A stretch of 64,000 bases of DNA, from contig NC_134032.1 in NCBI RefSeq assembly GCF_964204645.1, positions 3,062,175-3,126,174 of the forward strand. The letters run 5' to 3'. Below the pieces are notes generated by a model. The model made no database searches. It was not told where the DNA came from and saw only the letters and a list, made by a program, of their open reading frames with translations. A program made the position numbers and the translations under genes. This document shows, piece by piece, positions 1,865 to 57,567 of the stretch. Numbering within the stretch: position 1 is the stretch's first letter; each line of letters opens with the position of its first letter. The stretch comes from Tubulanus polymorphus. Lineage: Eukaryota > Animalia > Nemertea.

Positions 1865-1945
1865 AGTAATTAGAAGATGGCGTTTTCAGGCCAGAGTACT
1901 AGAGTACTAGACACCACTCATCACCACAAGTAATTTTTTTTTCCT
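1865..1945 (+). repeat. Left terminal inverted repeat of the Polinton
   Basis: agtaattagaagatggcgttttcaggccagagtactagagtactagacaccactcatcaccacaagtaatttttttttcct is the near-perfect reverse complement of 18369-18448 (a few substitutions, one T-run length difference). Confidence 0.95.
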
Positions 1946-1979
1946 ACTCATCACCACAAGTAATTTGTTTTCCTTATAA

Positions 1980-2306
1980 ATGGGAGATAGAAAAGCATTC
2001 TTAGCAACAATAAATAACAGAATAAAACCAGCAAAAAAACAATTTGAAATAAAAAAGTTAGTTGATGTTACAAAAGAAATTGAACATAAAATATTGAAAT
2101 TAGAAAAGATAAAAACTAAATATGGAGAGAAAGTATCAGCTAATTTAAGCTACTGTAATGTTAGTACATCACGAGAATTTAAAGTATTTTTACCCGATAA
2201 ATGGGTTTCATTGAGTATGGAGGAATTGAAAGATTTAGTAGGAATTAAAATAATATATCATGGGAAAAATGAAGACGGTCATCATGATTTAGAAATTGTT
2301 GATTAA
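1980..2306 (+). CDS. Polinton small hypothetical protein (108 aa)
   Basis: Intact ORF with TAAATG start, directly after a tandem pair of the ACTCATCACCACAAGTAATTT motif at the left TIR. Confidence 0.75.
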   Translation: MGDRKAFLATINNRIKPAKKQFEIKKLVDVTKEIEHKILKLEKIKTKYGEKVSANLSYCNVSTSREFKVFLPDKWVSLSMEELKDLVGIKIIYHGKNEDGHHDLEIVD

Positions 2307-2454
2307 ATCTAAAAAAAATTAATAAAAATAATGAATATCTAGAATCCGAAATGACTTATCTGGACAATTTAATTGCTCCTCATAGATAGACAAAAGTAGT
2401 GAGATATTCAATTAATTAAAAAAATTATTTTTTTTTTGCTTTTTTTCTAAAATA

Positions 2455-2809
2455 TTAATCCATTTTTTTTATTGTTAATTTTGGAATTTCAGAAGTACTT
2501 TCATTTTTGATAGCAGTTGGTTTAGAATTATTAATATCATGAATTTTATTTGATTTCTTATACCAATCATACCCAATCAAAATGAATACAATTACAAATC
2601 CAACTGTAAAATATAAATATTTATCAAATATTCTACTATCAGAAGGAGTAGAAATAACAATATTTTCACCATTTTTATTAACATTTTTATTACTTATTTT
2701 TTCTTTTACGGCTTTTTTTATATTCTTGTGATTTAATTCCTAATTGCCGAGACCATTCAATTTGTTTCTGAGTTCTCGGTTTTTTCTTCACTTCTTTCAC
2801 CTCGCTCAT
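2455..2809 (-). pseudogene. Polinton small membrane protein, frameshifted (absent from ORF track)
   Basis: TAAATG start at 2809 (MSEVKEVKKKPRTQKQIEWSRQLGIKSQEYKK). Removing one A from the A7 run at ~2713-2719 continues into AVKEKISNK...YLYFTVGFVIVFILIGYDW (hydrophobic helix)...KKMD* ending at 2455. Confidence 0.65.
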
Positions 2810-3347
2810 TTATTATAGAAATATTTTTACTTTCAATATTTGAAAATGTTATAACTCCAGTTGATAATAATGTCATAAATCCACCTAATTGAAATGATAA
2901 ATATCCAATCCATTTATTTAATTCAGTCATAACTAAATAATCATTTTTTAAATCGGAATATAATCTATTTTCATCTTCAATTGGTAGTATATAATTACAT
3001 AATTTACTATAACCTTTTACTACATTTTCTGATATCGCGTCATTAATTCTAGCTGTTCTCGCGGCTTCATAAATCTTAAATAATCTAATAATTTCATCTG
3101 ATTTCATTATGTCTAATTCATTATAAGTTAAATTTTTACCAACAAAATTTTTACATTTTCCAGATGCTATTAATATTTCTAATTGATGTTTGCAATAAAG
3201 ATAATATTCATAATTATTATTTGTTGTAACATTATTTAAAGCACCATCATCTGGAATTAATTTTGTTTCTGTTATTCCTAAATCATCTAAAGTTTTTTCA
3301 ATTGGAACATCACCATTTTTAGATTTTATTTTCTTTTCACCCACCAT
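2757..3347 (-). CDS. Polinton hypothetical protein (196 aa) with C-terminal hydrophobic segment
   Basis: Intact ORF; TAATTTTTTT..TAAATG start context; WIGYLSFQLGGFMTLLSTGVITF hydrophobic stretch. Confidence 0.8.
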   Translation of the reverse strand: MVGEKKIKSKNGDVPIEKTLDDLGITETKLIPDDGALNNVTTNNNYEYYLYCKHQLEILIASGKCKNFVGKNLTYNELDIMKSDEIIRLFKIYEAARTARINDAISENVVKGYSKLCNYILPIEDENRLYSDLKNDYLVMTELNKWIGYLSFQLGGFMTLLSTGVITFSNIESKNISIINERGERSEEKTENSETN

Positions 3348-3380
3348 TTATATAACAAAAAAATTAATTGTGTGATGTTG

Positions 3381-3735
3381 CAACTAGAATTTAACTAGAA
3401 TGTAACTAGAATTCAACTAGATTAACAAGCTAGTTGAAATATTGTTGTTTTTGTTTATTTCTTGTTAAATCTAGTTGATTTTTTGTTTCAACTATTAACA
3501 ACTAGAATTCAACTAGAATGTAACTAGAATGTAACTAGATTAACAAGCTAGTTGAAATATTGTTGTTTTTGTTTATTTCTTGTTAAATCTAGTTGATTTT
3601 TGTTTCAACTACTAACAACTAGAATTCAACTAGAATTAAAATAGATTAACAAGCTAGTTAAAATATTGTTAAATCTATTTGATTTTTGTTACAACTACCA
3701 ATAACTAGAATTCAACTAGATTAACAAACTAATTG
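3381..3735. repeat. Polinton-internal non-coding tandem array (about three ~120-bp units built from ~11-bp AACTAGAAT subunits)
   Basis: Recurrent caactagaatt/aactagaatgt and caactagattaacaagctagttgaaatattgtt blocks between the 196-aa gene and the ATPase. Confidence 0.85.
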
Positions 3736-3738
3736 AAT

Positions 3739-4347
3739 TTAAATAAATTCATATTTAAATGGGTGTTGTAATCTAAATAGTAATTTTGATCTTTTAATAT
3801 TTTTCAACTTATCCATATATTCATTATGTAAATCATGTGGAATAATATCATTTTCCTCAAGTGCATTTTTCATCGATTTTCTATCTTTATTGTAGAATAA
3901 AACTAGAAATCTAATGTTTTCTCTAAAATCTTTAACAATTGAATTATATTTTTGATTTAAAACCCAAGTTGTTATCCCAAAATGTCTCCCAGAGAAAGCT
4001 AAATAGCATAACTCACTTTCTCTAACTTTTGAATCATGTAGATTAGCACAATCATCTATAATGAATAATGTATTTGATCCTTTATAAATATCAATTGCTA
4101 TTTTTATACAATTATCTAAATTTTCTTTTACTGTTTTAGGATCTAATATAATAAATTTATTATTCCTAGTAATATTTTTATCATAAGTTTGATTAAATTC
4201 ATATGTTGGACAAAATAATACTATATTATCAAAATAGTTTTCATAAACAGTTTCTAATAAATGTAATATAAAATAAGTTTTTCCACAATTTGTTACACCA
4301 GAAATTAACATATTATGAGGCTCAAATATAAATAATTCCTTATTCAT
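3739..4347 (-). CDS. A32-like (FtsK/HerA superfamily) virion DNA-packaging ATPase
   Basis: Walker A ISGVTNCGKT, Walker B LFIIDD, arginine-finger region SGRHFGIT followed by LNQ. Confidence 0.92.
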   Translation of the reverse strand: MNKELFIFEPHNMLISGVTNCGKTYFILHLLETVYENYFDNIVLFCPTYEFNQTYDKNITRNNKFIILDPKTVKENLDNCIKIAIDIYKGSNTLFIIDDCANLHDSKVRESELCYLAFSGRHFGITTWVLNQKYNSIVKDFRENIRFLVLFYNKDRKSMKNALEENDIIPHDLHNEYMDKLKNIKRSKLLFRLQHPFKYEFI

Positions 4348-5475
4348 TTATATATTTTTAATTTTACTTGATAATATCCATTCATTGAATTTATCTGGCC
4401 ATCCAACCCATTTTACTAAAGAATATTTTTTTCTTTTAACAGTTTTTGTTTTTAATACTTTTTCAATTTTATATTCTTGTTCTAGATTTTCAGTAGTTAA
4501 ACTTAATTCTTCTTCGTAAAAATATCCATCAACTTCTTCACCATCTAAATCTTCTAATTTATAGACATATGGTTTTGTTGTTATTACCTTTTTTATTTTA
4601 TATATTTCTCTAGTAAAATTTCGATCGTATCCTTTATCAAATATCTTTTTATACTTAGAAATTCTAACATTTTGACCAACTTTAAATTTAGGTTCACCAA
4701 AATCATCAACAAGAAATGCTCCATATAAATTATTCCAAACAATTTCAGCATTTTCAGATTTTCTAGCATCAATAGGTTTCATTCCAATAGAAGAATGATA
4801 AGAATTATTATATCCTTCTATCAATTTTGGTAAAACATCAATCCATTTAAAAGTATTATTTGCTGTAAAATATTTCCACATTCTTGTTCTTAATGTTCTA
4901 TTAAATCGTTCAACAACTGCTGCTTTTTTATCTGATTTTGTTGAAAAATATTTAATATTATGATTATCTAAGAGTTCATGAACAAGTGAATTATCAAACT
5001 CTTTTCCATCATCAAATTGAATTTTTTCTGGTTTTAGTTTACCACCTGAAAGAAATTTTCTTAAAACATTTGATGTTTGTACAGCATCTTTTCTATAAAG
5101 TGGGAAGCTCCATACATAACGACTAAAAATATCAATTATATTCAATAACCACCAATAATCATCATTATCTTTCTTAACATTTTTCATATCAATTAAATCT
5201 CCTTGCCACTGTTGATCTACATAACTTACCATAGTTTTACGAGTTTTATATTTTCTAACAATTTTTTTAGGTTTTGTATATGTTGGTTGTTCTAACATAA
5301 ATTCATTTATATCTTTATATTTAACTAAATTTTGTGGGATTATCTTATCTAATTTATCTTGTTTTACTTTACGCCATATATTTTTAGTAGAAGAATAAGC
5401 AACCGAACTCTCAGGGTTGTAATATAAATTTCTTAAATATTGTTCTTTAGTATTAGGAGTTTTTTTACCTCCCAT
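4348..5475 (-). CDS. Retroviral-like (rve) DDE integrase with C-terminal chromodomain
   Basis: WQGDLIDM, IDIFSRYVW, IQFDDGKEF and VVERFNRTL catalytic blocks; C-terminal YKIEKVLK..YSLVKWVGWPDKFNEWI chromodomain; ORF intact. Confidence 0.96.
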   Translation of the reverse strand: MGGKKTPNTKEQYLRNLYYNPESSVAYSSTKNIWRKVKQDKLDKIIPQNLVKYKDINEFMLEQPTYTKPKKIVRKYKTRKTMVSYVDQQWQGDLIDMKNVKKDNDDYWWLLNIIDIFSRYVWSFPLYRKDAVQTSNVLRKFLSGGKLKPEKIQFDDGKEFDNSLVHELLDNHNIKYFSTKSDKKAAVVERFNRTLRTRMWKYFTANNTFKWIDVLPKLIEGYNNSYHSSIGMKPIDARKSENAEIVWNNLYGAFLVDDFGEPKFKVGQNVRISKYKKIFDKGYDRNFTREIYKIKKVITTKPYVYKLEDLDGEEVDGYFYEEELSLTTENLEQEYKIEKVLKTKTVKRKKYSLVKWVGWPDKFNEWILSSKIKNI

Positions 5476-5505
5476 TTATATATCCTTAATTTTAACTTTA
5501 TATTT

Positions 5506-6754
5506 CTAATATTGAATACTATCTAATTGTGAATTTACAATATTTAATTGCGCATCAGATATAATATAAATGTGGATTTTAAAATTTTTGATTCCTTTAT
5601 TCTTTTTCATGAATAATTGTATTCCATCTTTAGTGTTCTGTAGTTTTTTTCCAGAACCATGTAATGAATTATCTTCTGTTGTTCTAAAATCTAACTATAA
5701 TGCATATTTATTACCGGTATAATAATCAATTTGATTAATATTACAATTTTCAAATGATTTTACTTTTTCATTCATAAAATGTTTTCTAATTTCTGGCCAT
5801 TGATCAATCATTCTCATTCCTTGACAAAATATTTTATTCGCTATTCCTTCGATAGTTATTTCTACTTTTGTTATTTCAGGATTATAATAATTGTCAACAT
5901 TTATTGCACCATTAGTATACGTTCCAATGGTAAAAAATATTAATATACCTTTAATAGATCTTCTAGGAAAGTTAATATTCTCATTTATTATTTCATCATT
6001 TGCATTAATAGTTACAGTTTTAAATTTATCAATATAATCATATAATAATGAAAACCCTTGATTGTATTGAGTTTGAATTGTGCTAGCAATATTTTCATTA
6101 GTTATTGTGTTATATTCTAAACATATATTCGATAATTTATAACTCATATCTTTAACAACGCTAGATAATACAATTTCATTTACAGGAGCAAATGTTATCT
6201 CAAATATAATATCTTCTTGAATTGCGTATTTATATAAAGGGGCATTATTATTTATCAATTCAAAATCTAATGGAATTTTATATTTGCTTCCATAAATCTT
6301 TTTAATCAAATTATCTACGTCATTATTTACTATTGCGTTATTGGCTTCAGATCTTAATTTATTTTTGGTTTTCTGATTGGATGCCTTGAAATATCATATT
6401 ATTTCTATTTTCTTTAGTTAACCATAAATCTTTATAATGCATAAATAAATTATAATCATCTAATGAGAAAACTGTTTCTGGACCAATCTTTATTGTTAAC
6501 TTTTTAATCAAATATCTTCCAACATTATCAACGACATAATTATTATTATTACCGATTACTTTTATATCGGCTGATAAATAAATACTATTTGGAACATAAA
6601 AAGTATTTTGTGTTAATCTAGGAATTCTAACGTATAAAGTTTCATCGGGATTAATATTTGAAGGGTTATGAGTAATTATATGATGTGATCTTTCTGCTTT
6701 AATAGCATTAGATATTCTAGAAATCTTAGAAGGACTTATATAACTCCCACTCAT
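5506..6754 (-). pseudogene. Major capsid protein (double jelly-roll type), disrupted
   Basis: ORFs 6359-6754 and 5695-6309 join by removing one A at ~6362-6366 (QSENQ-NKLRSEANN..LIKKIYG). In-frame TAG at 5695-5697 sits where Trp is expected (KYAL*LDFRTTEDNSLHGSG); reading continues to TAG at 5506. About 415 codons in total; motifs (THNPS, YKLSNICLEY, FPRRSIKGIL) recalled from Polinton MCPs. Confidence 0.75.
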
Positions 6755-6774
6755 TTATTTAACAAAAAAATTAA

Positions 6775-8211
6775 TCATTTATTTTTTATCATGTTTACTA
6801 ACCCAAAAATAATAGCACTTACAACTGTAATTAAAAATAAAATAATATGTTCAGCAGCAAAGTTAAGAATATTACCTGCAGATTTTAAAACAAAACCAAC
6901 AATTGATGCAATAACTCCTGGCAATGCTGCAGCAGATTTTTTAGATAGTTCCCATAAATATTTTGCTAATTTCTTTAAACCATCTTTAACTTTATCTTGT
7001 ATAGAATTATTGCCTGGAGGTTTATCTGGTTTATTAGGAGTGGGAGTAGGAGTAGATTTTAAAGCATTTGATATAGCTAAACCTATTGTTGTAAATAACA
7101 TAGTAACAGCTGTTAGAATTGAAAGAATTGTTATTCCTTCTAATTTAAATAATAACTTTATCCTATCTTTTAATGATATTTCAGAATTTGGTTTAATCAA
7201 CAAATCTTTAAAAATAACTTTTAATCTATTAATATTATAATCATATGATTTTAACAATAATTTAATTTCTTCTTTCTGTACTTCTAAATTATCTTTTAAA
7301 TTACTAATTTCTTTTTCTAAACGTAATTCTTTTTGCCTATATTCTATTTCATCAATTACTTGATGATCTAAATCAGACTTTAATTGTTCTATTTCTTTAT
7401 TTTTATCAGTTAATTCTTTTTCCAAATACGTAATTTTTTGATCTCTTATACTTTTATTATGCGCAATTTTATCAGATGCAAGTCTTATATTAATAATTTC
7501 TCTAATTGCTTTATCAGAAAATATATCTAAATCTTCTAATTATTGATCTGTTGCATCAAGTAATCCATTCGGTAAAAGTTTTTCAATTGGAACTTTATTT
7601 GATTTAAGTTTACTAGTTTTGGAAGTTTTATTCTGTTCAGAAGTTTTTTCTGTTTCTGATTTCTTTTTGATTATTTCAAATAATTCATTAATTCTTTGTT
7701 TAAATACATCTATATTATCATCTATTTCTTTTTGTGTAACATCAGTTATTTCATTACTATTACTTATTATTTTAATTCTATCTGGTTTTAATTTTTCTAA
7801 AGTTGATTCTGATAATATTTTATTTTTATTATTTTTATAAGTGATATCAATATAATAATCACCTTTCAAACGATAATAACATTTACCATTATCTAAAAAT
7901 TTTAATTGATCTGCTAAAAGTCCAACGTCTTCATCATTTATGTTAAGTTTAGATTTTTCAATTAAATCTTCTAATTTAGGTATTTTGTTTAAATTATCTA
8001 AATCTTGTTTTACTAAATCTGGGTCTAAATTTTCAGGATTTAATTGTGATTCAGCATTTTTAATATAATCAGGCATATTTAAATTATTGTTATATTCTGG
8101 TTCATTACCATCATTAAAACTTGTTTCATCAAAATCAGGTGGTTGTTCATCAGTTATACCAGGTTCATTAAAAGGATCCATTCCAATATCTTCTACACCT
8201 TCTACATCCAT
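6775..8211 (-). pseudogene. Acidic/coiled-coil protein with C-terminal membrane segments, interrupted by one nonsense codon
   Basis: ORFs 7540-8211 and 6775-7425 are in the same frame, separated only by TAA at 7540-7542 (DATDQ*LEDLDIFSDK...). The C-terminus has hydrophobic helices flanking a PTPTPNKPDKPP linker. Confidence 0.75.
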
Positions 8212-8228
8212 TTATATAATAAAAAAAA

Positions 8229-9644
8229 TTAAAATTTAAAATATAATATTCCTCCGATTACAATTCCTATACAAGTTATAGCTAATTTAGTATTTTCATG
8301 GGATTTATTATCATCATTTAGTTTAATTACATCATGTTGAATATCACCGTGTGGGTGCCATATGGCACCATTATCAGTTCTATTATTTTCTGTAGTATTG
8401 TAATCTTTTATTTTAGAATCATTATTTAATTTAATATTCTTAGTTTTAGTTTCTGTTGATTGAATGTGTTTTTAATTTTTTTCACCTTCGATTAATTTTG
8501 GAGCAGTAATAATCTTTTTATTTATATCATTTAACCCAAATGAATTATTTATTGTTGCAGTTTTAATTAGATTATTATAACCAATTATATTTCCCATCTT
8601 TAATACTAAATCATTAGAAATAATTAATAGATTAGGGCCTATACAATAATTAAGTCTTACATGAGATTTATCTAAATAATTTTGATATCTTATAATGTTT
8701 TCTGGAATCGATCTATTTTTATCATTATGAATTGAATCTTCAAATAAAACTTTAAATTGTTTTTGTGTATCGAATGATGTATTCAAATTTCCAATTATCG
8801 GTGATCTTGTTTCAACTTGTGATCCTAGAATACAAATCAAATAAGTTCTAATAGATTGATTTATTCTTTCTATACCTGATTTAGTAAAACCTTCACTATT
8901 TTCTAAAATAAAATAAACCCAACCATTATTGTTTTCTTGTTTTAAATTATCATAAAATTTTGGTAATTTATTGAAATTTAATGTTTCTAAATCCTTTGTT
9001 TCTATTTGACCATAACCTAATTTTTTATTATTGATATTATAAAAACTATTAGATGGTATGGGAAGTGCACAATATTCTGCAATCTTTCTAGGGCAAGGAA
9101 GTGATCTTATTGTTCCAATTTTTGTTCTAAAATCAGAATTATTTATATCTATATTAAATTCATTGCAAATTTTATAAAACTTAGATAGATTAATATTATT
9201 ATCTAATTCTTTAAAATATCTAGATCCTGGTAAAGCACACTCTAATTCATTTAATATTATTCTGATTTGAAAGTATGTATGAAATCTAAATAAACTTTGA
9301 ATTAGTTTATATTTAGAATTATTCAAATGATTATTCCAACTAATTCCACATCCTGTTGTTGCACAATAAACAGCAAAATTTAATTGGTTCTGCCAATACT
9401 TCATATTAGATTTTAATAACCATTGTTTTTCATCTTTCAATTTTTTAAAATTAATTAAATATACATGAAATATATTTTCCATCTTTGCATTAAAATTATT
9501 AGTTTCAGTAACATAAATTTCTAAATCAATTAATGAATTTAAAACTTCATTTCTATATGTAATATCTTTATTAAAATCTATTGCTGGAATATTATATTTA
9601 ATTGATTTATTATATCGGAAAGTTTTTGGAAAACTATCTACCAT
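8229..9644 (-). pseudogene. Polinton conserved hypothetical protein with C-terminal membrane anchor, one premature stop
   Basis: 390-aa ORF (YWQNQLNFAVYCATTGCGIS) stops at TAA 8472-8474, but the same frame stays open to ...HENTKLAITCIGIVIGGILYFKF* at 8229. Confidence 0.7.
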
Positions 9645-9660
9645 TTATATAACTAAAAAA

Positions 9661-10093
9661 TTAATAATTTATTAATTCTTTTAATAATTTATCTTGTTCT
9701 TCAACTGTTATATGACCATTTAAACTTATTATATAATCTAGTGTGTTCTTTAATTTATTAATTTCTTTTATATTAGATTTTATTTTTTCTTTATTACTTT
9801 TTATATTTAATTTTGAACTTATACCAGTTAAAACACTTGAACTTAATCCTAACACACCAATTGATATAGCTAGGTGTTAATGGACTGAATATTGCTAGAA
9901 ATGTTATTACAGAACTAATTGTAACCGAACCACTTATAATCAAATAATATATAATTTTACTTTTTAAATATTTTTTCTTTTTTATCTTTAAGTCACTTTC
10001 AAATTCTAATATTTGTTTTTCTAGATATATTTTTAATTTAGTTTTATTTATATCATGAGGAATAATATCAATACTATCAACTTTATCTTCCAT
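9661..10093 (-). pseudogene. Polinton small membrane protein, frameshifted
   Basis: Overlapping ORFs 9794-10093 (TAAATG start, hydrophobic IIYYLIISGSVTISSVITFLAIF) and 9661-9855 read as one gene with a frameshift near 9870. Confidence 0.65.
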
Positions 10094-10112
10094 TTATTTA
10101 GAATAAAAATTA

Positions 10113-10535
10113 CTAATTAGTAAACTTATAAGCAACAAATATAACAATAACAGTTCCACCTAAAATCCATATTATTTCATATTTCTGTTGTTCTTTACTT
10201 GGGGTATAATTATCTGATAATTTAGGTTTGTATAGATGTAATTTTTCTTTATTGGTTACTGCGTTATATAAACTCATTGCATCATCAACTGATTGAAAAT
10301 CTCTATGTGAAATCTTCTGATCATATAATTCTTTATTGATGTAATCCATATAGTTTTGTCTCTTTTCTCTATATTCTTCTGCAGCTTTATTGTATTTCTC
10401 TAACGATAAGTTATGTCTTCTTTGTTCTCCTAATGAACTATTTTTATCAATATGTTTAAATAAATATCCACCACCAGTAAATGCTAAAGCGTTAACAATT
10501 GCTGATCCTATAATAGTTATAATTGCAGAAGCCAT
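10113..10535 (-). CDS. Polinton small protein (140 aa) with hydrophobic N- and C-termini
   Basis: Intact ORF; MASAIITIIGSAIVNALAFTGGGYLF and IIWILGGTVIVIFVAYKF; motif-preceded start. Confidence 0.85.
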   Translation of the reverse strand: MASAIITIIGSAIVNALAFTGGGYLFKHIDKNSSLGEQRRHNLSLEKYNKAAEEYREKRQNYMDYINKELYDQKISHRDFQSVDDAMSLYNAVTNKEKLHLYKPKLSDNYTPSKEQQKYEIIWILGGTVIVIFVAYKFTN

Positions 10536-10560
10536 TTATTTAGCAAAAAAAATTATGTAT

Positions 10561-10782
10561 TTATATAGGAGGAATATATTTTTGTTTTTCCAAATAATCA
10601 ATAGTTAAATTAGATAAAGTAACTGCTAATGTTAACTTTAAAATATCATTTATATCAAATCTATCAACATTAACACTTCCCATTTTGAATACTTTTTTTA
10701 ATACCATTGAATAACCAACAGTTCCAACTGATAGTAATGCGCCATTATATAATCCAGTTATTATCCACTTATTATCACTCAT
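10561..10782 (-). CDS. Polinton small hydrophobic protein (73 aa)
   Basis: Intact ORF, TAATTTTTTTGATAAATAAATG start context. Confidence 0.8.
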   Translation of the reverse strand: MSDNKWIITGLYNGALLSVGTVGYSMVLKKVFKMGSVNVDRFDINDILKLTLAVTLSNLTIDYLEKQKYIPPI

Positions 10783-11130
10783 TTATTTATCAAAAAAATT
10801 ACTATCATCAAAATATTTAGTTAACTTAGTTTCAACATTTATTTTATTACTAGTTTCATTTGTATATATTTCAATTATTATTTTCTTAATATCATCGATG
10901 ATAAAATCTTCATCTAATTCATAAAATCTTAAAGATTCTCTAATTAAATTAGTAATCTTTTCTACATTTAAAGTTTCTTTATCAATTGTTGTTTCATACT
11001 CAAATGTTGTTTCATTAGAAAATACAATATTTTTGATATGTGTTATTACATCATTAATGTTAAATTTCATTTCTTTCTCACGTTTAAAATCAAATCCAAA
11101 ACATATACTCGGTCCAACAGTTATATTCAT
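10783..11130 (-). CDS. Polinton hypothetical protein (115 aa)
   Basis: Intact ORF, TAATTTTTTTGATATATAAATG start; its stop abuts the next ATG. Confidence 0.75.
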   Translation of the reverse strand: MNITVGPSICFGFDFKREKEMKFNINDVITHIKNIVFSNETTFEYETTIDKETLNVEKITNLIRESLRFYELDEDFIIDDIKKIIIEIYTNETSNKINVETKLTKYFDDSNFFDK

Positions 11131-11146
11131 TTATATATCAAAAAAA

Positions 11147-11946
11147 TTACTCTCTACATCTTATAACTAATTCATATATCACAGGAAAGTTGTTCAAATC
11201 AATTAAATAACCATTATGATTTCTTATTTCTAATTTAAAATTGTTAAATTGAGGAATACAAGGTTTAAAATCACATTCAGCTAAATTATAATTTATTTGC
11301 GTTCCAAATTGTTTAACGTTCTTCGATGGTAAAATATTTAATATACTAGAATTACATGTTGTATCTTTAGTTGCTTCAAATGTTTTTGTAGGATCGATTA
11401 AATTGCAATAAATATAAAAGTGTGTAAAAGGTATTATATTTGAGTTACCGTGTATGTTTACACCAATAAAATCATTTGGAGTAATTCCTAACAGTTTAGC
11501 AAAAGGTTTTTTTACCATGTAATTATGTCTTCTTGTCATCAATGGATTAGATTTAACAAGTTTAATAAGTTCATCATCAAACTTTATTTTAATTTTATTA
11601 GAGCTCTCACTTTTTATGAATTTAATATTAAATTTGGAATTACCATTACCTAATCTAATCCGAGCTTTTCTATTAATTTCTTGCGCTAATGTTTCTAAAT
11701 TATATAATCCTGGTGTAAGCATAAGTTGAATCCATTTTTTTCAAGTTTATCAAAAATAAGAAGGCTTCTATGTTCATCAGTTTTATCTGATATATTATAA
11801 AATGAGTTACATAAACTTATATTTACTAATTTTAAATCTACACAATTCTTGAATTCTCTATCTAATTGAACTAATAAATTATGTGATTTATAATTTGTAA
11901 GTCTTCTTGAATCAACAAATATTCTGTATTCTTTTAATTCTACCAT
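11147..11946 (-). pseudogene. Minor capsid (penton-like, single jelly-roll) protein, frameshifted
   Basis: ORFs 11695-11946 and 11147-11722 overlap and join near 11720-11745. C-terminal FYIYCNLID..SILNILP..FKLEIRNHNGYLIDLNNFPVIYELVI is typical of Polinton penton proteins. Confidence 0.65.
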
Positions 11947-11968
11947 TATTTATAACATAAAAAAATTA

Positions 11969-11997
11969 CACTCATCACCACAAGTAATTTTTTTCCC
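11969..11997 (+). promoter_or_regulatory. Internal copy of the TIR-derived motif CACTCATCACCACAAGTAATTTTTTTCC in a divergent intergenic region
   Basis: Near-identical to sequence within both TIRs; lies 6 nt upstream of the ATG at 12004. The penton gene starts divergently at 11946. Confidence 0.75.
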
Positions 11998-12003
11998 TAA
12001 TTA

Positions 12004-13305
12004 ATGGACGAGAAGATAGCATGTGAAATTTGTGGTGAACTTCTAAGAAAAAGTAATATGGCTCGACATATGAAAAAACATAATGAAAATTATAAACCCC
12101 CTAAACTAAACTGTCCAAAATGTAATAAATTATTCTCAAGAAATTATGTTAAAAAACATTCAGAGAAGTGTAGAATTAATAACGCAACAGCTAATGTTGA
12201 TAGTAATTCTGCTGAAGTTGAACCTGAAGTTATTTGGAAAAGACCTTTTTTATTTTATGACAAGAATAATGTAAAGAATAATTTCTGCGAGCCTTGTAGA
12301 ATGAAATACATCCCTGATAATAAAGAAGATTGGGAGAATCATCAATTTCGTAAAGCACATATAGATAAAATTTCTAATAAATTTGAAACTGAATTCAATG
12401 AAAGAAAAAATAATTTATTAGAAAAAATAAAATATGAGAAAACGTTACCAGATAATGAAGAAACAGTTGAAAAGTTAGAAAAACAATATAATGAATTAAC
12501 AAGAAAAACATATTATTGTAAATATTGTAAATTGATTATTACAACAAGTAATTCAAATCTACATAATAGAACAATAAAACATAAAGAAAACGTAAGAAAA
12601 TACCAAGAGCTTAATGAAGATCTATTACCAATAAATTATAAACGAAAATGTCCACAATGTAGTTATGCGACCTTAAGACAAGAAGGTACTGTGTTATTTT
12701 GTGTTGATTGTGGATGGCAAAAGAATTTATGGGATGAAGAAAAAACTAGAAATTTTCTTATAGATCCAAAATTAAATTATCTTGATGAAATTTTTAAAAT
12801 ATGTTCTATAGAAGATCATACACCAGAATATATGCAATGGCTTGAAAAAATGAAAATAATAGAAAATAAAAATGGTGGAATAACTAAAAAAGATATTATA
12901 AAAACAATTATTCCACCAACATTTAACACAAAACAAAAGAAAATGTATTTATATTTATTATTTAACGATTATTATAAAAAACCTAAATTAACAGAAGAAG
13001 ATATGAAAAATATAAAAAAAATATTTAAACAAATATTAATGTATCATTTGGAAAATAGAATAACAGATTCAATAAATTATGAATTCTTTTTAAATAAGAT
13101 TGTAAATTATTTAAACCTAGATATTATAATTCCATTTGATGAATTAACAAACAAAAAGAAACAAAGAGAGCGAGATGAAATGTGGAACAAGATAGAACTT
13201 TATTCAAATGAGAAAAATGGAATGGAAGAAGAACCTGAACAATTAAATGAAAATGAAGAAGCTAATAGTGATTTCGAGTATGATGATATTGATTTTATGT
13301 TTTAA
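12004..13305 (+). CDS. Multi-zinc-finger protein with putative VLTF3 (poxvirus A2)-like late transcription factor domain
   Basis: N-terminal C2H2-type fingers (CEIC..HMKKH, CPKC, CEPC, CKYC..HNRTIKH). Zinc ribbon CPQC-x12-CVDCG is followed by a helical domain ending SINYEFFLNKIVNYLNLD..KKQRERDEMWNKI, resembling the VLTF3 C-terminus. The ORF is well supported; the VLTF3 call is by eye. Confidence 0.65.
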   Translation: MDEKIACEICGELLRKSNMARHMKKHNENYKPPKLNCPKCNKLFSRNYVKKHSEKCRINNATANVDSNSAEVEPEVIWKRPFLFYDKNNVKNNFCEPCRMKYIPDNKEDWENHQFRKAHIDKISNKFETEFNERKNNLLEKIKYEKTLPDNEETVEKLEKQYNELTRKTYYCKYCKLIITTSNSNLHNRTIKHKENVRKYQELNEDLLPINYKRKCPQCSYATLRQEGTVLFCVDCGWQKNLWDEEKTRNFLIDPKLNYLDEIFKICSIEDHTPEYMQWLEKMKIIENKNGGITKKDIIKTIIPPTFNTKQKKMYLYLLFNDYYKKPKLTEEDMKNIKKIFKQILMYHLENRITDSINYEFFLNKIVNYLNLDIIIPFDELTNKKKQRERDEMWNKIELYSNEKNGMEEEPEQLNENEEANSDFEYDDIDFMF

Positions 13306-16300
13306 TGGCCATAAGGTAATGTTTTTATACCATCATCTGAAATATGCCTTTTATTATCAAATGGATTTAAACTAGTTTTTTCAACTTCATTAATGTACAT
13401 CTCGTGATCTTCTGATCTTAAACAATTCATTTTGTGTTTCATTACAATTGAGTTATATAAACATTTTATATAATCTTGAAATTCTATATGTTTATCAACC
13501 ACATGTTTTGTTATTCCTTTTAACTTTTTAGCTTCATGATCTTTTGTTCTGTAACTATACATTTTACTTCTTATCCCAACAAATTCAATCATTTCATCAC
13601 CTCCTAATTCATCTTTAAACTTACCAGGAATCTTTTTATTATCATTACTAAACAATTCATGATCTTTGGGGTAATTGCTAAAGTCGAAATAATGTTTCAA
13701 TGTTTTTAAGTCTTTTGTTATATCATTTGTCTTGATTTTTAGTATGTAGGCGTCAGTATTTTTTTGGATTAATGGGAACCCAGAATTGAATGTTCCATCA
13801 TCTGTTGATAAATCATAAACATAGTCAGTTGGGTTATATATTTCAAATAAATCCTTAACTTCTTCTGTTAACTCATTTTCTACATGGCTTAAATTAAAAC
13901 AATTTGGTTTAGATTTATTCAATCCAATATTCATATTGAAGCCTAATGAATTACATAATATATTTAATCCTGATATAGCAACTTTTCCTTTTTGAGCTAA
14001 AGATATTGTTTTGCGGTTTTTGAAACTTTTAGTACCATCTGCTGCATAGAATCCAATGAAGAACCATTTTCTTAAATTATTTTTTGCATTTAATACATAA
14101 TCTGGTACTATCTTTTCTTTTGTTGAAGTATTACTTTTCACTATTGCATGAATATAGAATTCATCATTATATTCTATAGCAAAATCTTTAGGATTATTCA
14201 CAAGTATTCTATAAACTGCTGATGATTTCATAACATCTATGATTTTGAATGTTTTATTTGGATAAACTTCTTCACAGAATTTCTTAATTCTTTCTAATAA
14301 TTTTAAGTCTTGATTGCATAAATACCAACAATATTTAGTTCCACTAACATAATTATACACACCTGCTGAACCATCACCCATGAAAAATCCTTTGATAAAA
14401 TATTCTTTTTCTTCCAATGTTTCTCGTTCTATATTATAAATATTATCAATTATTTCATCAAATGACATATGATTCATTCTTGGGAAAAATCTTTTATGTA
14501 ATAATTCATCTCCAATTTTTATATCAGTTGGTTTTATTTCATCACCATTTCGTTTAATTAAACTATGATCTTCTGTAACATCTACAAATCCTAATTTAGT
14601 TCTAACTCTATAGATTTTCTTATTTGTTTTATGTCTAATAATATTATTTAATTTTTTCCATCCATTTCTTGTCCAAACATCCATTAATCCATTTATTTGT
14701 ATTAATTCTTTTTCACCATATGAAATATAACATTCATTTTGTTTTGGAATTATTTCTGAAATTCTTCTTACCAATATTTTATTATTACATTTTAATAATA
14801 TTGGGGTGTCAGCTGTTACAGAATCGAAGTATAGAATTTCTATGTGTTTTTCCCCAAAAAGTGGTTGTAATACATTATAATAGAATTCATACATTAATAA
14901 TTTTGATACTTCTAAAACGGTTGAACCTATGAAAATGGGTTTATTAAATTTCATTGATGTTCTTTTTAATTTTACCGCGGTCAAATAATCCTCAAATCTT
15001 TTATTTTGTAAATGTCTGGGGCTTGATTGTAAATGCCTTAATCTTTTATAATCATTTACTAACTCAATGTCGTTTCTATTACGAATATTCTCACAAGTTT
15101 TTCCATAAAAACTATTGTTCATTAATTTGAAGAAATCTTTTTCGAAATCAGTTTTTGATATGGTTCTCTGTTGAGTATTGAAATCTATATATTTTTCTAA
15201 CCACTTCGATTGATTAAATTCAATATATCTATGTACTTTCTTTAATTTCATTCCTTGTTTTAGATAAAATTTTAACATTCTATAATGAACAATATAATTA
15301 TATTTATTATTTTGAGTAAGTATTAATTTTTCTGTAAAAACATGATCTTTCGGTTTTATTTTCTTCTGGTATTCACTTAAATAACTATCATCTACAGTTA
15401 AATGTTCTGGGCAATAAGGTAAGTTTCTTGTTTTAAACTTTATATTTTCAGGGTATTCTAAATCAACTACAAAGAAATAACCAATTGGTGCTTCATCTTT
15501 TAAACTCGCAATTGCGTTTTCCCAATCAGTTTTATCATCATTTTCAACTTCTGTTAATATAAAATTTTTATATGGTTGAGGTTGCATCATTGCCCAACCA
15601 TATAAATTATTGGCATCAATATATAATAATTTATATTCATCATTTGCTTTAAAATACCTATCTCCCATAACACCACTAATTCCACCTCTAATTGATTTTT
15701 CAAATAATAAAACCATGTCTGGTTCTTTTAATAAATCTAATTCTACATTTGTATATTTTAAACCACATTGCCAGGTTAAACCAGGACTAGAGTAGCAATA
15801 ACAAGGATCAACATTAAAATGGTTTAGATTAACTTCTCTAAACTTTTCAAATATGTCAGCCAATATCATAACATCTGATTTTAAATATAAATCAACTAAT
15901 TCACCATGATTTTTCATCTTAAAATGGTTCCAAATATTTAATGTTCTATCAAAAACTTCGTCTTTCACATACTCCTCTTTTAATTTATCATAAAATTGAT
16001 CTTTTAATAATTACATTAAAATCATCATGTGTTTTATAAAATGAATAAGGAATTGCGCCTTTATATCTCAATAATTTAAAATCTTGGTCATTTGGATAAT
16101 AATATCGAGTTATAACAAAATCATTATCAACTAAACTTTTTGATAAATTATCTAATGAACTTGCTAGAAATCTATAAGAATCTAAAAATCTAATGCAACC
16201 AAATTGAAATGAAATATAATTTTCAGTTGTTTTAGCTAATAGTTTAAAATCATATTTTCTTACATTTGCTTCATTCATAGCATTATATTCTTCTATTTCT

Positions 16301-18363
16301 TGATTAATTGCGCCCAATTTTCCCGATAATTGTTTTATAAATAGATGGGTATCATATCCTGATAAATTATGAAATAATATTGGTACGAAATTTACTTTTT
16401 TAGCTTGTAAATTGCAATCTTCATGAGCAGCTCCACGATATTTTGAATTTAAATGATCATGATCTCTAACTCTTTTATCAAATGAATAAAAACGTTTTTC
16501 ACAATAACAACAATGAGTTGCATAATTAAAATCAATTTCATCTTCTTTTGTCATAACTATTCTTTTATTTTTGTTTAATAATTTTGCAAAATCACTTTCT
16601 AATTCAATAATTTTATCACAAAAATCATTAACTACATTTTCACCTCTAAAAGAAATATATTGACTTTCATATAATTCGGGATAATTTGATTTTATATAAA
16701 TTCCATAAGCAGCAGCTCTTTGATGAACTTTTTTAATTGTATTTATAATTGGTGGGTCTTGTATTGCGTCTTCATTTAATTCATTTCCTTTATCCATTGA
16801 TTTTAATAATTGCTTTTTGTTATATATTTCTTTTCTATCTTGATCAGTTAATTCTTTATTCAACGATTCAAAATCCCCATAAATTACAAATGGAACAATA
16901 TTTTTAAATTTATGATTAGTAAATTTCAATTTATAATCTTTTTCTGTTGGCATTATTAATTTACAAAAATCTTTATTATCACATAATTCTTTATGTTTTA
17001 GTAATGTATTCTCAGTTCTAAATTTAGATAAACATTTTCTACATAGATAAATTTTATGGCTGTTAAAATCACTTTCTGTTCTAAAGAATAAATCAATTTG
17101 TTTTAACCACATATAATGTTCATTTTCATCTTTTTTGTAATATAACAAATCTATAGCATTTTCATCATCATAATATTCTGTTAAATATAAAGCTTCCAAT
17201 GTATAATCTTTAATATTTTCACCTTTTGTCTTTGGTAATTGCATTAATTCGAATACATTTATTTTTAAATTATTAACTTTTTCTATTTTAGGAATCATTT
17301 TTATAGTTACTGGATATTGATCAATTTTATATAATGTTTCATATTTCCGGTAATCTGTTATTCTATAAACATGTTCTTCTGTTGGATGTAAGCAACTAAT
17401 AATTGACCATAGAAAACATTTATTATCTTCATTTTGAATATTTATTACTGCTTTTGTTATAAACGGTAATTTGATATAACTTGATGCTTTCATATCTTTT
17501 TCTGTTATAAAGTTTGAATCATTTTTAAACATTTTATTACTTTTTGATGTTTTATTTCTTTTTGTATTATAAACATTTAAATCTAAATATATAATTTCAT
17601 ACAATGTTAAGCCAGAACCCTCAAAATATCTTTCTTCAATATGACGTTTAAATTCATTTAATATTTTTTCTAACTTCTCTTTTATTTGTGTTTTTGAAAT
17701 TATTTCTTCAGAGTGTGTTTGAATATTATAATTCATTTTTTCTTCTGACTTTATAAAACTTACTTTCCCAGAGATACTAATTTTTGGATATTCAACATCT
17801 GTTATCAAATCTAGTAATTTTTCTATTATTTCATTAAATTTACTATAATCTTCTATTGTTGTACCTTTAAAGAATCTAAATATAATAGCTGCAGGACCAA
17901 TTTTACTATGTAATGTTTCTAAGATTTCAATTGTATCTTTGATTTCTAGTGAATCAATATAATTTCTAACATTTTCCATGTAAGGTTTATTTGAAATGGA
18001 TTTAGTTTTTGAAGTTGGTTTTTTTACTTTTTGAGTTTTATCGTCAAAATAATCTTTTCTTAAAACATTATTACTCAAATTTTGGTGGTGTTTTTGTGAT
18101 TCGAGATGTCTATTATAATTCCTTTTTACTATAAATTCATTACAAACTTCACATTTTATTTCATCCACATTCATATTTTCTAATCGTTCTTTTCTTTCAT
18201 TGGAATTTTCTGGAGTTTCAAAATCTATAACATTTTTTATATGATTTGAAGATTTTTCATGTTTAGATTTATTAGATTTATCGATGTATTTTTTACAATA
18301 TTGACAATAATATTGATTTTTATTGACATTATTGTTTTCTAGTTGGTGTTCATTCTCCCCCAT
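13302..18363 (-). pseudogene. polB: Protein-primed family B DNA polymerase (pPolB) with N-terminal Zn fingers, inserted endonuclease VII-like domain and an intein; one frameshift
   Basis: Exo I VIYGDFES, Exo II FHNLSGYDTH, RFLDSYRFL, Exo III YLKSDVMILADIFE, motif A YIDANNLYGWAM, motif B KLMNNSFYGKT, motif C YFD/TDA split by the intein, KIPGKFKDE, SKMYS, KLKGI. ORFs 15988-18363 and 13302-15968 are one gene: the downstream frame extends upstream as KDQFYDKLKEEYVKDEVF (the 15968 start is a GTG), placing the frameshift at ~16005-16015. Confidence 0.93.
13758..14822 (-). mobile_element. Intein (355 aa) with LAGLIDADG homing endonuclease in pPolB motif C
   Basis: Block A SVTADTPILL, block B VDVTEDHSL (TxxH), LAGLIDADG blocks FIKGFFMGDGS and FFIGFYAADGT, block F DYVYDLSTDDGTF, block G LIQKN followed by +1 Thr. 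Excision restores YFDTDA. Confidence 0.95.
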
Positions 18364-18368
18364 TTATT

Positions 18369-18448
18369 AGGAAAAAAAATTACTTGTGGTGATGAGTGGT
18401 GTCTCGTACTCTCGTACTCTGATCTGAAAACGCCATCTTCTAATTACT
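18369..18448 (-). repeat. Right terminal inverted repeat of the Polinton
   Basis: aggaaaaaaaattacttgtggtgatgagtggtgtctcgtactctcgtactctgatctgaaaacgccatcttctaattact mirrors 1865-1945. Confidence 0.95.
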
Positions 18449-21092: not shown

Positions 21093-26477
<5,385 letters not shown>

Positions 26478-35170: not shown

Positions 35171-35239
35171 TCGAGCTGGTTTTTGCTTTTTATTTATAGG
35201 TCGTATCGAGCCTGATGCTGGGGTATCGGGAGACGCAAT

Positions 35240-35560
35240 ATATAAGTCCTGAATGAAAGATGTTATGTCGGATACAGGAACTGATACTTCTAGATGTGGG
35301 AGTCATTCAACTCGGGCAGCGGTTGCTTCAGCTGTTGAAGCAGCTCGACGCGAACACTTTCAAATGGTCGTACTGCGAAGACACGTTTGCACAGTTTTAT
35401 AATAAGCCGATGATCGGAACTTCTGAGAATACTCTGGCGAGGATCTGCACAACTGTAGTCGGTACGGGCTTTTTATTCATCGACGAAATGAATTTTTCAT
35501 TCGAAATCTCGTAGAATTGTGGAAATGAGTAAAATTATACAATTAAACAAGACTTACCCG
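35240..35560 (+). mobile_element. DIRS-like tyrosine recombinase 3' relic (also at ~37515, ~60010, ~62315)
   Basis: Alternative frame reads MKDVMSDTGTDTSRCGSHSTRAAVASAVEAAR (HSTR motif); after a frameshift, WSYCEDTFAQFYNKP (catalytic Tyr region). Confidence 0.7.
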
Positions 35561-38140
35561 TGAAATTACACAATAAATGAATTGATACCTAAAGAGTTTA
35601 TTTAGAATATTAGAAATATTGCAGGTGTTTGCTAAGATCCTTCTTCGGTCTAGAAATATGCATTTTCAAACCGAAGAAACCCGAAATATTTCTGATAATT
35701 TAGATTAACTTTTAAGCTATCAATTCATTTGTCATTGGATTCTACTCTTATTGATTAACCACAGGTATTGCCTGATCTACAACTGAGACTTACCCGTATA
35801 AGGAGAAGTTTGATGGTAATTCTACGAATGACCACAAACACGAGGAATGATTTAAGTGGTTGGTTTAAGCCGCCGGTCACTGGTCTCGTCAATCCAGGGT
35901 TTATGGGTTCAAACCCCGGTGGCGACAGAGTTTATCGGTCGAAGGATCTTCTCCGGTCTCTCCCCCATCGGGAGAAAGAAACATTAAACCCGCTTTTAAT
36001 GCCCTGCATGGCGCTTAATGGGTTAATAAAATGATTTTAAAAATTATACGTCCACGCCAGATTAGGGCCCTCTCTCGTGTGTTAGCATTTCTCATTGTGT
36101 TATGTATGATTTTCTATTTTAGGCGGAGTTTGATTTGTGATTGACAACTCATTCAGACGTTTAATCTGTCAATTGATTTCGCCTTCTGTGAATAGTGCTG
36201 GACGGAAGTGGATCTCAATCACCTCAAACACAGGTAAGACTGGTTTAATTGTATAAATCTAATCGGTAATAAGAGACCGGCAACCAGTCTAATCTCTATC
36301 CTCCTGTCTGTCGTGTGTGTTTTAGTAAATAGTACATGTATTTGTATATATTGTAAATAACCTTGTTATGTTTTTCATTGAAATGTTTTTATTTTTCTCT
36401 TAATTCGTCAACATTTTTGTAAACAAATCGCAAGAAATTCAAATTTTATCAGTGAACGCCAATAAAATTATAATGTTATGAGTGAACGGAATAGGTAAAA
36501 TAATGTATTAGGAATTAGGAACTTTTCTCGATAAAATATAACAAAGTTGTTATTGATACAAACATCCACTATTTACAATATATTAACTATTAGAGGGATC
36601 TATAAACATTTGATAAATTTATTTAACTGGTTTGTAGGATGTTTTGAGATATGTATGCGTTAACCAGCTAGTGCTGCCGTCTACAGTCAATTCAACTCAC
36701 TAAATGATCCACCGTTTGAGAACACTCATAAAAATACACTGCAAGTCACAACTTCACAGTAAGATTTACAGACACTAGAAAGAGACTAGAAACAAAGTGA
36801 GAAAACTGAACTACAGAATGATATGAAATGAGCCACGTTATGACTACATGAAATTGGAACTACTGTCAATCCTGGAACAACCTCGACCAGATAATCCTTA
36901 GAAACATAAACCAATCCTTATAAACGGAACACTAATATTCGTATGCTATGTTGTTCTGAAGCTTATTTCACACAAGTTTTTGTACAAAAATATCGGAAAC
37001 AAATATCAGAAATAGCGGATATATGTAAATCCATCAAATGTATCATCGTAAACCCTGAAAGTGCGGTTAGGTTCTGATGAAATATTGCAGATGGAAAGTT
37101 TTTCCAGAATTCTAAATTTGGATTCTGGGGCTCAATTTCATAGAATGAATCTACACCTCGGAATTCTACTCTGAAAACTGGTTATTCGTGTTTCCCGCTG
37201 ATAACTGCTGTAAGACGAGTTCATCCATCCAAATGTCTCCCGTTATCCCAAACACCGGTAAATGGCCCGATCCGTTTCTGTCCAATTTACTGCGAAAACT
37301 TGCTTATTCTACCACCTGAAAACAGGAATAGTATGAGTTAGCAATATATCTAACACCGGTGTTTTTATATCATTCACTCCATTCACTATTTGACTGTCGT
37401 CTGCTAATTTTGAGTTCTATTTGACTGTCGTCTGCTAATAATCGAGCCGGTTTTTGTGATCAATTATTTATAGGTCGTATCGAGCCTGATTCCGGGGTAT
37501 CGAGAGACACAATATATACGTCATGAATGAAAGATGTTATGTCGGATACAGGAACTGATACTTCTAGATGTGGGAGTCATTCAACTCAGGCAGCGGTTGC
37601 TTCAGCTGTTGAAGCAGCTCGACGCGAACACTTTCAGATGGTCGTACTGCGAAGACACGTTTGCACAGTTTTATAATAAGCCGATGATCGGAACTTCTGA
37701 GAATACTCTGGCGAGGATCTGCACAACTGTAGTCGGTACGGGCTTTTTATTCATCGACGAAATGAATTTTTCATTCGAAATCTCGTAGAATTGCGTGTGA
37801 ATCGTGGAAATGAGTAGAATTATACAATTAAACAAGACTTACCCGTAAAATTACACAATAAATGAATTGATACCTAAAGAGTTTATTTAGAATATTAGAA
37901 ATATTGCAGGTGTTTCCTAAGATCCTTCTTCGGTTTAGAAATATGCATTTTCAGACCGAAGAAACCTGAAATATTTCTAACATTTTAGATTAACTTTTAA
38001 GCTATCAATTCATTTGTCATTGGATTCTACTCTTATTGATTAACCTCGGGTATTGCCTGATCTACAACTGAGACTTACCCGTATAAGGAGAAGTTTGATG
38101 GTAATTCTACGAATGACCACAAACACGAGGAATGATACAA

Positions 38141-38335
38141 GCGACGCAGTGGCCGAGTTGGTTTAAGCCGCCGGTCACTGGTCTCGTCAATCCAGGGTTT
38201 ATGGGTTCAAACCCCGGTGGCGACAGAGTTTATCGGTCGAAGGTTCTTCTCCGGTCTGTCCCCCATCGGGAGAAAGAAACGTCGAACCCGCTTTTAATGC
38301 CCTGCGTGGCGCTTAGCGGGTTGAAAAAAAGATTT
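38141..38335 (+). mobile_element. tRNA-derived SINE (copies at ~35855 truncated, 60637, 62942)
   Basis: Pol III box A TGGCCGAGTTGG and box B GGTTCAAACCC, no intact cloverleaf, followed by an unrelated body and A-rich tail. Confidence 0.7.
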
Positions 38336-56885: not shown

Positions 56886-57500
56886 TAGGAATAGAGAATA
56901 TTTGCAAATAAAATATGTAAAATGTAAAACAAAATATGATACTACAGCAAAAGGAAACTAGGTGGAGATACAATCAAGTGAATATAATATAAAAAGAATC
57001 AAAGTGTTAAAGTAAAGAGTTAACTAGGTTACACATAAGGCTGGCAATTTCATAGTCTCTGTTGTTATAAGACATCAAAAATAAGAATTTATCGAAAACA
57101 CAAAAAGACTCAAACTCAGTGAAACATACAAGTGAGGATAAAATGGAAACTCTGGCAGGATGAAGCGAGGGACACTCGAGTAAAAAGTGGGATTCGTCCT
57201 CAACGACTTTATCTACAGTACAGTAGAGGCAAAATCTCTCATTGGCTGGTAAAAATGGACGACAGTGACGCGCCGTCTCGATTCTAAGCCGATGGGAACC
57301 GAGACGCAGTTTGGAAAATTCGCGTCTTTTAAGGAAAGAGTTCGAAATTATATATTTTTCTAGTTCAAAGCGTTTTTTAAAAAGTTTGTAAGTTCTTAAT
57401 TTGGGGTTGGAATTACTGTCGTTGATTTGAAATAGCCACGAAGAAGAATATAAAAGATACATTTTAGACTGGAGCAGTTTGATAATTTTATTGGGGTGGT
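56886..57500 (-). mobile_element. 3' fragment of a non-LTR retrotransposon (C-terminal CCHC region and 3' UTR)
   Basis: KLRTYKLFK..KLRLGSHRLRIETARH..RFCLYC..VEDESHFLLECP; the 3' UTR segment 56886-57008 is also duplicated at 55543-55662. Confidence 0.8.
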
Positions 57501-57567
57501 TGGAGCCATGATTAGATCAAACACCATGAAGATCAAATGATTTTAGTATTGAGAAAATTCCAGAACA

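Follow-up and report, generated by a model that had tools for sequence, protein, structure and literature searches.

A pol-c-type intein in the protein-primed DNA polymerase of a Polinton in the animal Tubulanus polymorphus, with relatives in other Polintons and in giant viruses

How does a complete intein come to lie in a transposable element of an animal genome, and does it move there? The question is raised by the window analyzed here, the whole stretch of 64,000 nucleotides from Tubulanus polymorphus (contig NC_134032.1, positions 3,062,175 to 3,126,174), in which an in-frame insertion divides the DNA polymerase gene of a Polinton. Part of a 2021 review (PMC8529194) describes metazoan genomes as being without inteins, and sections of a 2018 survey (PMC5784728) assign the inteins of eukaryotes to fungi, algae and some protists, together with nucleocytoplasmic large DNA viruses (NCLDVs).

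The intein comprises 355 amino acids at positions 13758..14822 of the reverse strand, with a stop-free translation from S1 (14820-14822) to K354-N355, followed by Thr+1. The N-extein ends in ...ILYFD and the C-extein begins with TDAY..., with polymerase motif C split as YFD/TD. This confirmed the initial annotation, which had proposed a 355-residue in-frame insert cutting motif C between YFD and TDA. The intein boundaries are exact, because intein-free close relatives (...IEIMYFDTDSY...) run uninterrupted across YFDTDS. Among the 120 extein relatives listed, the motif was unbroken in 64 and carried an intein in 5, while 51 were uncalled.

The N-terminal Ser, the block B TxxH (T83/H86, in TEDH at 83-86), the block F Asp (D337, in VYDL), the C-terminal Asn and Thr+1 of class 1 inteins were all present on the reverse strand. 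The penultimate residue is K354 instead of the His that is common, but not universal, in class 1 inteins; KN ends were found in 86 and HN ends in 81 of 178 related inteins. As in LAGLIDADG endonucleases, two motifs with acidic residues were observed (D150 in GFFMGDG, 14373-14375; D262 in GFYAADG, 14037-14039, both on the reverse strand), and between them a lysine, K237 (14112-14114, same strand), which is nearly invariant in an alignment of 55 rows. The splicing blocks and both acidic residues that had been claimed from inspection (S1, TEDH, D150, D262, D337 and N355) were thus all recovered. The placement of the insert, with YxD of motif C before it and TD after it, and the kinship to other inteins at the same position are those of a pol-c intein, and the proposed Pol-c site agrees with the one given in part of Ogata 2005 (PMC549080).

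Searches with Pfam profiles identified LAGLIDADG_3 in the intein with a score above the cut-off (E 2e-07), and Intein_splicing with an E-value of 3e-06 and a score of 27.6 bits, below the cut-off of 35.8. A structure model built on an alignment of 55 sequences reached a pLDDT of 92.6 and a pTM of 0.92; the single-sequence fold had a pLDDT of 37. The top PDB matches of the alignment-based model were the TliVMA, PI-PkoII, PhoVMA, PI-PfuI and PI-SceI inteins (E 2.5e-17 to 2e-10). The endonuclease part aligned with a segment of PI-PkoII, and its fold matched I-DmoI and PI-SceI. The best-ranked named viral matches of the model were DNA polymerases of a phycodnavirus, pandoraviruses, a marseillevirus and Megavirus, and a search of the ESM Atlas with the intein returned nothing beyond generic LAGLIDADG/intein clusters. 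Judged by its sequence and by the predicted Hint fold, the segment at 13758-14822 of the reverse strand is a pol-c intein.

The intein is embedded in a gene for a protein-primed PolB (pPolB). The N-extein part, in the frame of the intein, is located at 14823..16010 of the reverse strand and contains YIDANNLYG and KLMNNSFYGK before its terminal YFD; the C-extein extends from Thr+1 (TDA) to the stop codon at 13302..13757 of the same strand. An upstream part of the polymerase, with zinc fingers, exonuclease motifs and an HNH/EndoVII-like motif, was found in another frame (15988..18363, reverse strand), and matches to the EndoVII profile were seen on relatives of this part. The weak or absent PF03175 match of the polymerase and the HNH-like motif would both fit the beta adintovirus PolB of Starrett or the pPolB2 of Jeong, with the polymerase class labels assigned in the present analysis. 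Whole polymerases of relatives aligned in one frame down to approximately 16012 and in another from 16010; by this alignment, the pPolB gene of the present copy is broken upstream of the intein by a frame change near 16010. On account of this frame change, the present Polinton copy is probably unable to make a whole polymerase. The intein-bearing reading frame noted in the initial annotation is real, but the upstream break was overlooked: the ORF of 888 amino acids, counted from a GTG at 15968 of the reverse strand, covers the downstream piece of a polymerase gene that is longer.

The Polinton extends from 1865 to 18448 (16.6 kb) and has a GC content of 23.6%, as compared to 35-38% in the flanks. 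It is bounded by terminal inverted repeats starting with AG; the left repeat (1865..1946, forward strand; 82 nt) begins with AGTAATTAG and is 94% identical to the right arm (18368..18448, reverse strand). Besides the polymerase, the reverse strand encodes a retroviral-type integrase with a chromodomain (4348..5475; rve E 5e-10, Chromo E 2e-4), an A32-like packaging ATPase (3739..4347; Pox_A32 E 8e-13) and a likely major capsid protein in two frames (5695..6754), broken near 6360-6390, with a weak match to Capsid_N (E 1.3e-3). The Polinton gene set of pPolB, rve integrase, packaging ATPase and capsid is thus represented, with a weak capsid match and with the pPolB and capsid genes broken. No Pfam match to an adenain-like protease or a minor capsid protein was obtained in the 16 ORF pieces of the element that were scanned, and several ORFs are without assignment. 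The motif of the terminal repeats recurs inside the element at 11956-12014, ahead of a divergent zinc-finger gene of 433 amino acids.

Polintons generate a target-site duplication of approximately 6 bp. No such duplication was seen at the ends of the element, where the flanks read AATAACTG and TGTAAACA, and the present copy may have been recombined or rearranged. The left flank (1500-1864) is apparently a high-copy host repeat, and many reads diverge at 1854-1863. Together, the left-flank repeat and the missing duplication suggest that recombination between two insertions may have produced the copy.

Most starts of the element's genes share a short sequence. TAAATG was found at 12 of the 15 listed ORF starts of the element, as compared to 48 of its 642 ATGs (7.5%), and 9 of the listed starts follow TAA and a run of T. 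The sequence CTCATCACCACAAG is common upstream of three element genes (starts 1980, 12004 and 18363). TAAATG is a motif of poxvirus late promoters, and the element may be transcribed with the help of a large DNA virus.

The DNA to the right of the Polinton is of animal type. A multi-exon caspase gene was identified at 21093..26477 of the forward strand, with spliceosomal-type junctions, one intron of which interrupts QACRG; true caspases constitute a family of animal proteins. The reading of the host as a Polinton pPolB on an animal-type scaffold, put forward in the initial annotation, is upheld by the Polinton gene set and inverted repeats, with an intron-containing caspase gene alongside. 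In the caspase gene, the N-terminal exon is long and unassigned, a GC donor may be present near 22220, and the usual caspase motif ILSHG is replaced by ILSHV. Further along the window, a unit of approximately 2.3 kb forms tandem pairs at 35190-39223 and 59961-64000, 22.5 kb apart, with 94-99% identity, and these units adjoin tandem arrays of 31 nt. Three reverse-strand segments (43651-45050, 46929-47303 and 57007-57516) resemble, by eye, decayed reverse-transcriptase fragments of retroelements.

Read depth was used to estimate the copy number of the element. In run X5, which stems from the same species but from another study and sample, the bin inside the intein had a depth of 175, as compared to 37-40 for host DNA, which corresponds to approximately 4.5 times single-copy depth (raw DNA reads; host DNA beyond 19077). 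The N-extein had a depth of 284-303 in the same run, and many of the reads were only 90-99% alike. Since these depths are several times that of the host and the reads are diverged, we conclude that the Polinton family, including the intein, is multi-copy in Tubulanus polymorphus. The intein depth of approximately 60% of that of the N-extein in X5 does not count as evidence, because values between about 120 and 945 occur along the element. None of the 15 joints listed, out of 159 for the reads of this genome, skipped the intein. Likewise, none of the listed pieces was a read or contig that crosses a junction between element and host, and the integration of this exact copy therefore rests on the assembly.

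The unspanned junction, the missing target-site duplication and the GC content of 23.6% against 35-38% in the flanks would also be compatible with an element that is a free or contaminating virus, or the product of a mis-join, and located outside the chromosomes of the animal. We regard this as very improbable, since inverted repeats at both ends meet host-like DNA, two genes are frame-broken in the manner of decaying insertions, and runs X5, X1 and X2 (three samples from two studies with the same species label) contain numerous diverged copies, at a depth several-fold above that of the host. Run X6, of unspecified kind, contained next to no element copies.

The closest relatives of the intein were same-site inteins of other Polinton polymerases, with identities of 63% (P0037), 50% (P0038) and 48% (P0039), followed by P0040, P0041, P0045, P0046 and P0009 at 39-47%. 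Identities among the Polinton inteins to the present one were thus 39-63% over the full length, with two fragments at 67% and 75%. Inteins of RNA-primed PolBs and of a few type II topoisomerases ranked alongside or behind them, at approximately 29-44%. The close likeness to the mimivirus intein suggested in the initial annotation was not borne out in the form stated; the comparison on that side covered Megavirus courdo11 PolB, which displayed 27% identity in the structural search. The broader kinship to NCLDVs held in part, as the nearest relatives outside the Polintons are giant-virus PolB inteins, but the closest overall are those of other Polinton pPolBs. A related insert was also seen in P0128, annotated as DNA polymerase delta of Chloropicon primus, with 32% identity over 98% of the intein and ending HN/TDS; on sequence grounds, this is an intein of the same family in a green-algal nuclear polymerase. 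Related inteins were further observed in type II topoisomerases (P0042, P0126, P0132 and P0143) at D/.../TDG sites, which suggests non-allelic spread into a similar DxD context.

Complete inteins were extracted from 177 of 313 related sequences; the other 136 had no recognizable complete boundaries and were excluded from the trees. All 13 complete Polinton inteins analyzed retained S1, TEDH, both LAGLIDADG aspartates, the block F Asp, the terminal Asn and Thr+1, and 12 of them contained the K..P motif. The 13 Polinton rows formed one clade in a FastTree analysis of 178 rows (support 99), as did all 10 Polinton inteins in an IQ-TREE analysis of 54 chosen rows (100/100). In the IQ-TREE analysis, this clade was the sister of 17 RNA-primed PolB inteins (95/94), a group that has the unusual C-terminal GFPL-type motif of the Polinton clade; in the FastTree analysis, the Polinton clade was placed loosely with four long RNA-primed PolB rows, not with the GFPL-ending group. 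Both trees were inferred from hand-chosen rows under LG+G4 or LG+CAT, models of a non-mixture type, and the rows did not include archaeal pol-c inteins. Three loci of the sister group were contigs of giant-virus MAGs (L009, L001 and L002). One of them belongs to IM_01, which we take to be the Mesomimiviridae. This locus, GVMAG-M-3300020169-51 (L009), appears under Imitervirales IM_01 in the PMC8575486 supplement, from which the other two GVMAG ids are absent. No Polinton-type extein was found at any of 117 intein-matching viral and metagenome loci (for the metagenome, 19 of 64 parts, with 80 of 190 matches kept), and the intein at none of 7 extein-related loci.

The sister relationship is compatible with more than one direction of transfer. 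The intein may instead have passed from Polintons to giant viruses, or a third carrier may have fed both from a common ancestor, as the Polinton clade is not nested within the giant-virus clade of 17 rows, the surrounding backbone is unresolved, and an AU test did not reject Polinton inteins outside a single clade of all 42 RNA-primed PolB inteins (p 0.194). Yet far more of the diversity of related inteins lies in RNA-primed PolBs (157 of the 178 rows, against 13), the two sister groups lie amid further RNA-primed PolB inteins if the tree is rooted on the topoisomerase inteins, and pol-c inteins have long been known from archaea and mimivirus (parts of PMC549080), which makes an origin of this kind unlikely. 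Because of the far larger intein diversity on the giant-virus side, the most parsimonious reading is that the donor was a giant virus, although the AU result leaves the inferred direction statistically unfixed. The jump between an NCLDV PolB and a pPolB proposed in the initial annotation would be old and would pertain to the whole clade of Polinton inteins rather than to the present element.

Movement of the intein among Polintons was analyzed in a tree of N-exteins with 41 chosen rows, 13 with and 28 without the intein. Intein presence changed state nine times on this tree, and eight of these changes were forced by well-supported (starred) branches; presence was not clearly clustered, since 43 of 500 shuffles gave an equally low count. 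The polymerase of the window grouped with four intein-free ones (100/99), which are its nearest relatives at 71-86% identity. The extein of P0037, the closest complete intein relative, was placed in another clade. P0039 has an intein 48% identical to the present one and located beside it in the IQ-TREE analysis (99/93), in a polymerase of another class that has no BLAST similarity to either extein.

Further evidence was provided by alleles from the P0038 cluster of 136 members, taken from the 15 that were listed. Between seven full and three empty alleles among these, identity was 99% over 1030 residues, but fell to 64% in the 11 residues that immediately precede the site and to 83% in the 53 that follow it, whereas pairs of full alleles and pairs of empty alleles were 98-100% identical. 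The downstream flank of a sister polymerase (P0245) is that of the empty allele, indicating that the flank next to the intein is the imported one, as predicted from homing with co-conversion. In a second pair (P0174/P0177), 98-100% identical, the clean difference is the intein. Movement of the intein among Polintons is well supported by these sequences; the full and empty pairs come from other Polinton families and thus indicate homing among Polintons, not yet inside the present animal.

These patterns bear on the view that the intein is ancient in Polinton polymerases and was inherited vertically and lost many times, with no need for recent homing or a giant-virus donor. Such a history would require many precise losses, given the eight forced changes, and would leave unexplained both the P0039 intein, which nests beside the present one (support 99/93) and lies in a different class of polymerase, and the short divergent tract between alleles otherwise 99% identical. 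We find it quite unlikely, even though a long stem leads to the single clade of Polinton inteins, a position of this clade outside all RNA-primed PolB inteins is allowed by the AU test, counts of changes do not separate gain from loss, and intein and extein identities within a class are often alike (63% versus 60% for P0037). The initial annotation had taken Polinton-only top matches with a phylogeny congruent to that of pPolB as the alternative to NCLDV transfer. The top matches are indeed from Polintons, but the intein tree departs from the polymerase tree, and the choice between Polinton relatives and NCLDV transfer is a false one. It is extremely improbable that the insert is a fixed polymerase domain that neither moves nor splices: nuclease insertions lacking splicing motifs have been described in pPolBs in part of PMC10748475, but the present insert parts the aspartates of motif C, all splicing residues are kept across the clade, and it is precisely missing from near-identical alleles.

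Taken together, we consider it probable that this full-length Polinton intein of the pol-c type, predicted to excise itself from the polymerase and to cleave polymerase genes that lack it, derives from one old capture from a giant virus followed by homing between Polinton families. In splicing, S1 would undergo an N-O shift aided by T83/H86, the N-extein would be passed to Thr+1, and N355 would cyclize, restoring YFD-TD with its catalytic aspartate. In homing, the LAGLIDADG domain (D150, K237, D262) would cut the empty motif C site in sister Polintons, and repair off the intein-bearing copy would write the intein and a short flanking tract into the cut copy; a multi-copy family would supply the empty sites. 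The initial move from an RNA-primed to a protein-primed polymerase would be a large jump, for which the short conserved YxD-TD context may nevertheless suffice. Direct homing between distant polymerases was considered implausible in a section of Ogata 2005 (PMC549080). A replication site shared with a giant virus would ease the initial jump, with the TAAATG starts as a lead; a pickup during replication beside such a virus would fit the TAAATG before most element genes. More tentatively, and with doubt, the intein may be actively homing by gene conversion between Polinton copies in animal germ lines, as a natural drive on a transposon family; it would then cross polymerase classes not alignable by BLAST and would have been picked up while Polintons replicated beside a giant virus.

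The complete intein described here, carried by a multi-copy element in the genome of an animal, departs from the stated absence, although it lies in a viral passenger rather than in a gene of the host. Since related inteins occur in RNA-primed PolBs as well as in two pPolB classes, and alleles with and without the insert are available, the tolerance for target sites is directly testable, and the intein marks a past contact of animal-type Polintons with giant viruses. It may also serve as a read-out of Polinton expression, because the polymerase is predicted to function only once spliced. No description of a Polinton intein was found in the literature; subscription journals, Repbase and InBase lay outside the coverage and may hold a record. 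The word intein was absent from Starrett 2021 and from the coral polintovirus paper PMC11131425 in a term search, and the parts covered of PMC12220804, PMC3671162, PMC5718144, PMC13768754 and PMC11296320 contained a general mention of inteins or none. New are the class of the host (a Polinton polymerase that is protein-primed), the location in the genome of an animal and the existence of an entire clade that bears marks of homing.

Among known systems, nuclease domains also occur in Polinton polymerases as the HNH/VSR insertions of pPolB2, described in parts of Jeong 2023 (PMC10748475) and Krupovic 2024 (PMC11071308). Here, in contrast, a complete intein with Hint and LAGLIDADG domains divides the active site, and an HNH-like motif is present upstream as well. 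One sentence in the part of Krupovic 2024 speculates that the HNH/VSR insertions stem from intein invasions; the terms intein, Hint, homing and LAGLIDADG had no matches in the portion of the Jeong main text that was searched, nor had intein, Hint and LAGLIDADG in one of its supplements. The inteins of Klebsormidium, Tetrabaena and a labyrinthulomycete (Gallot-Lavallee 2023, PMC10710043) likewise lie in viral polymerase genes on nuclear scaffolds, but their hosts are algae or protists, and in the part of that paper covered no Polintons are named and "metazoa" and "animal" have no matches. The Chilo iridescent virus intein, cited in a section of PMC549080, also belongs to a virus that infects animals, but this is a free iridovirus with an intein of the glutamine type that is not inherited in the genome of the animal. 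The giant-virus PolB inteins ending G(F/Y/T/S)(P/A)LI(V/I)KN, among them L009, L001 and L002, form the sister clade, with 38-42% identity and the same site, but the exteins of these GFPL-type inteins are not alignable by BLAST to the Polinton polymerase. Finally, the site is that of the mimivirus R322 intein and of position III in archaeal PolI, as given in part of PMC549080, with YGD/TDS there and YFD/TDA here. The likeness to the R322-type pol-c inteins of that source extends to the length (351 versus 355 amino acids), the Ser1/Asn/Thr+1 residues, the TxxH block and the LAGLIDADG domain. The host polymerase is RNA-primed in the pol-c inteins described there and is a protein-primed Polinton polymerase here, and the present carrier integrates in an animal genome and has its nearest relatives in a clade confined to Polintons.
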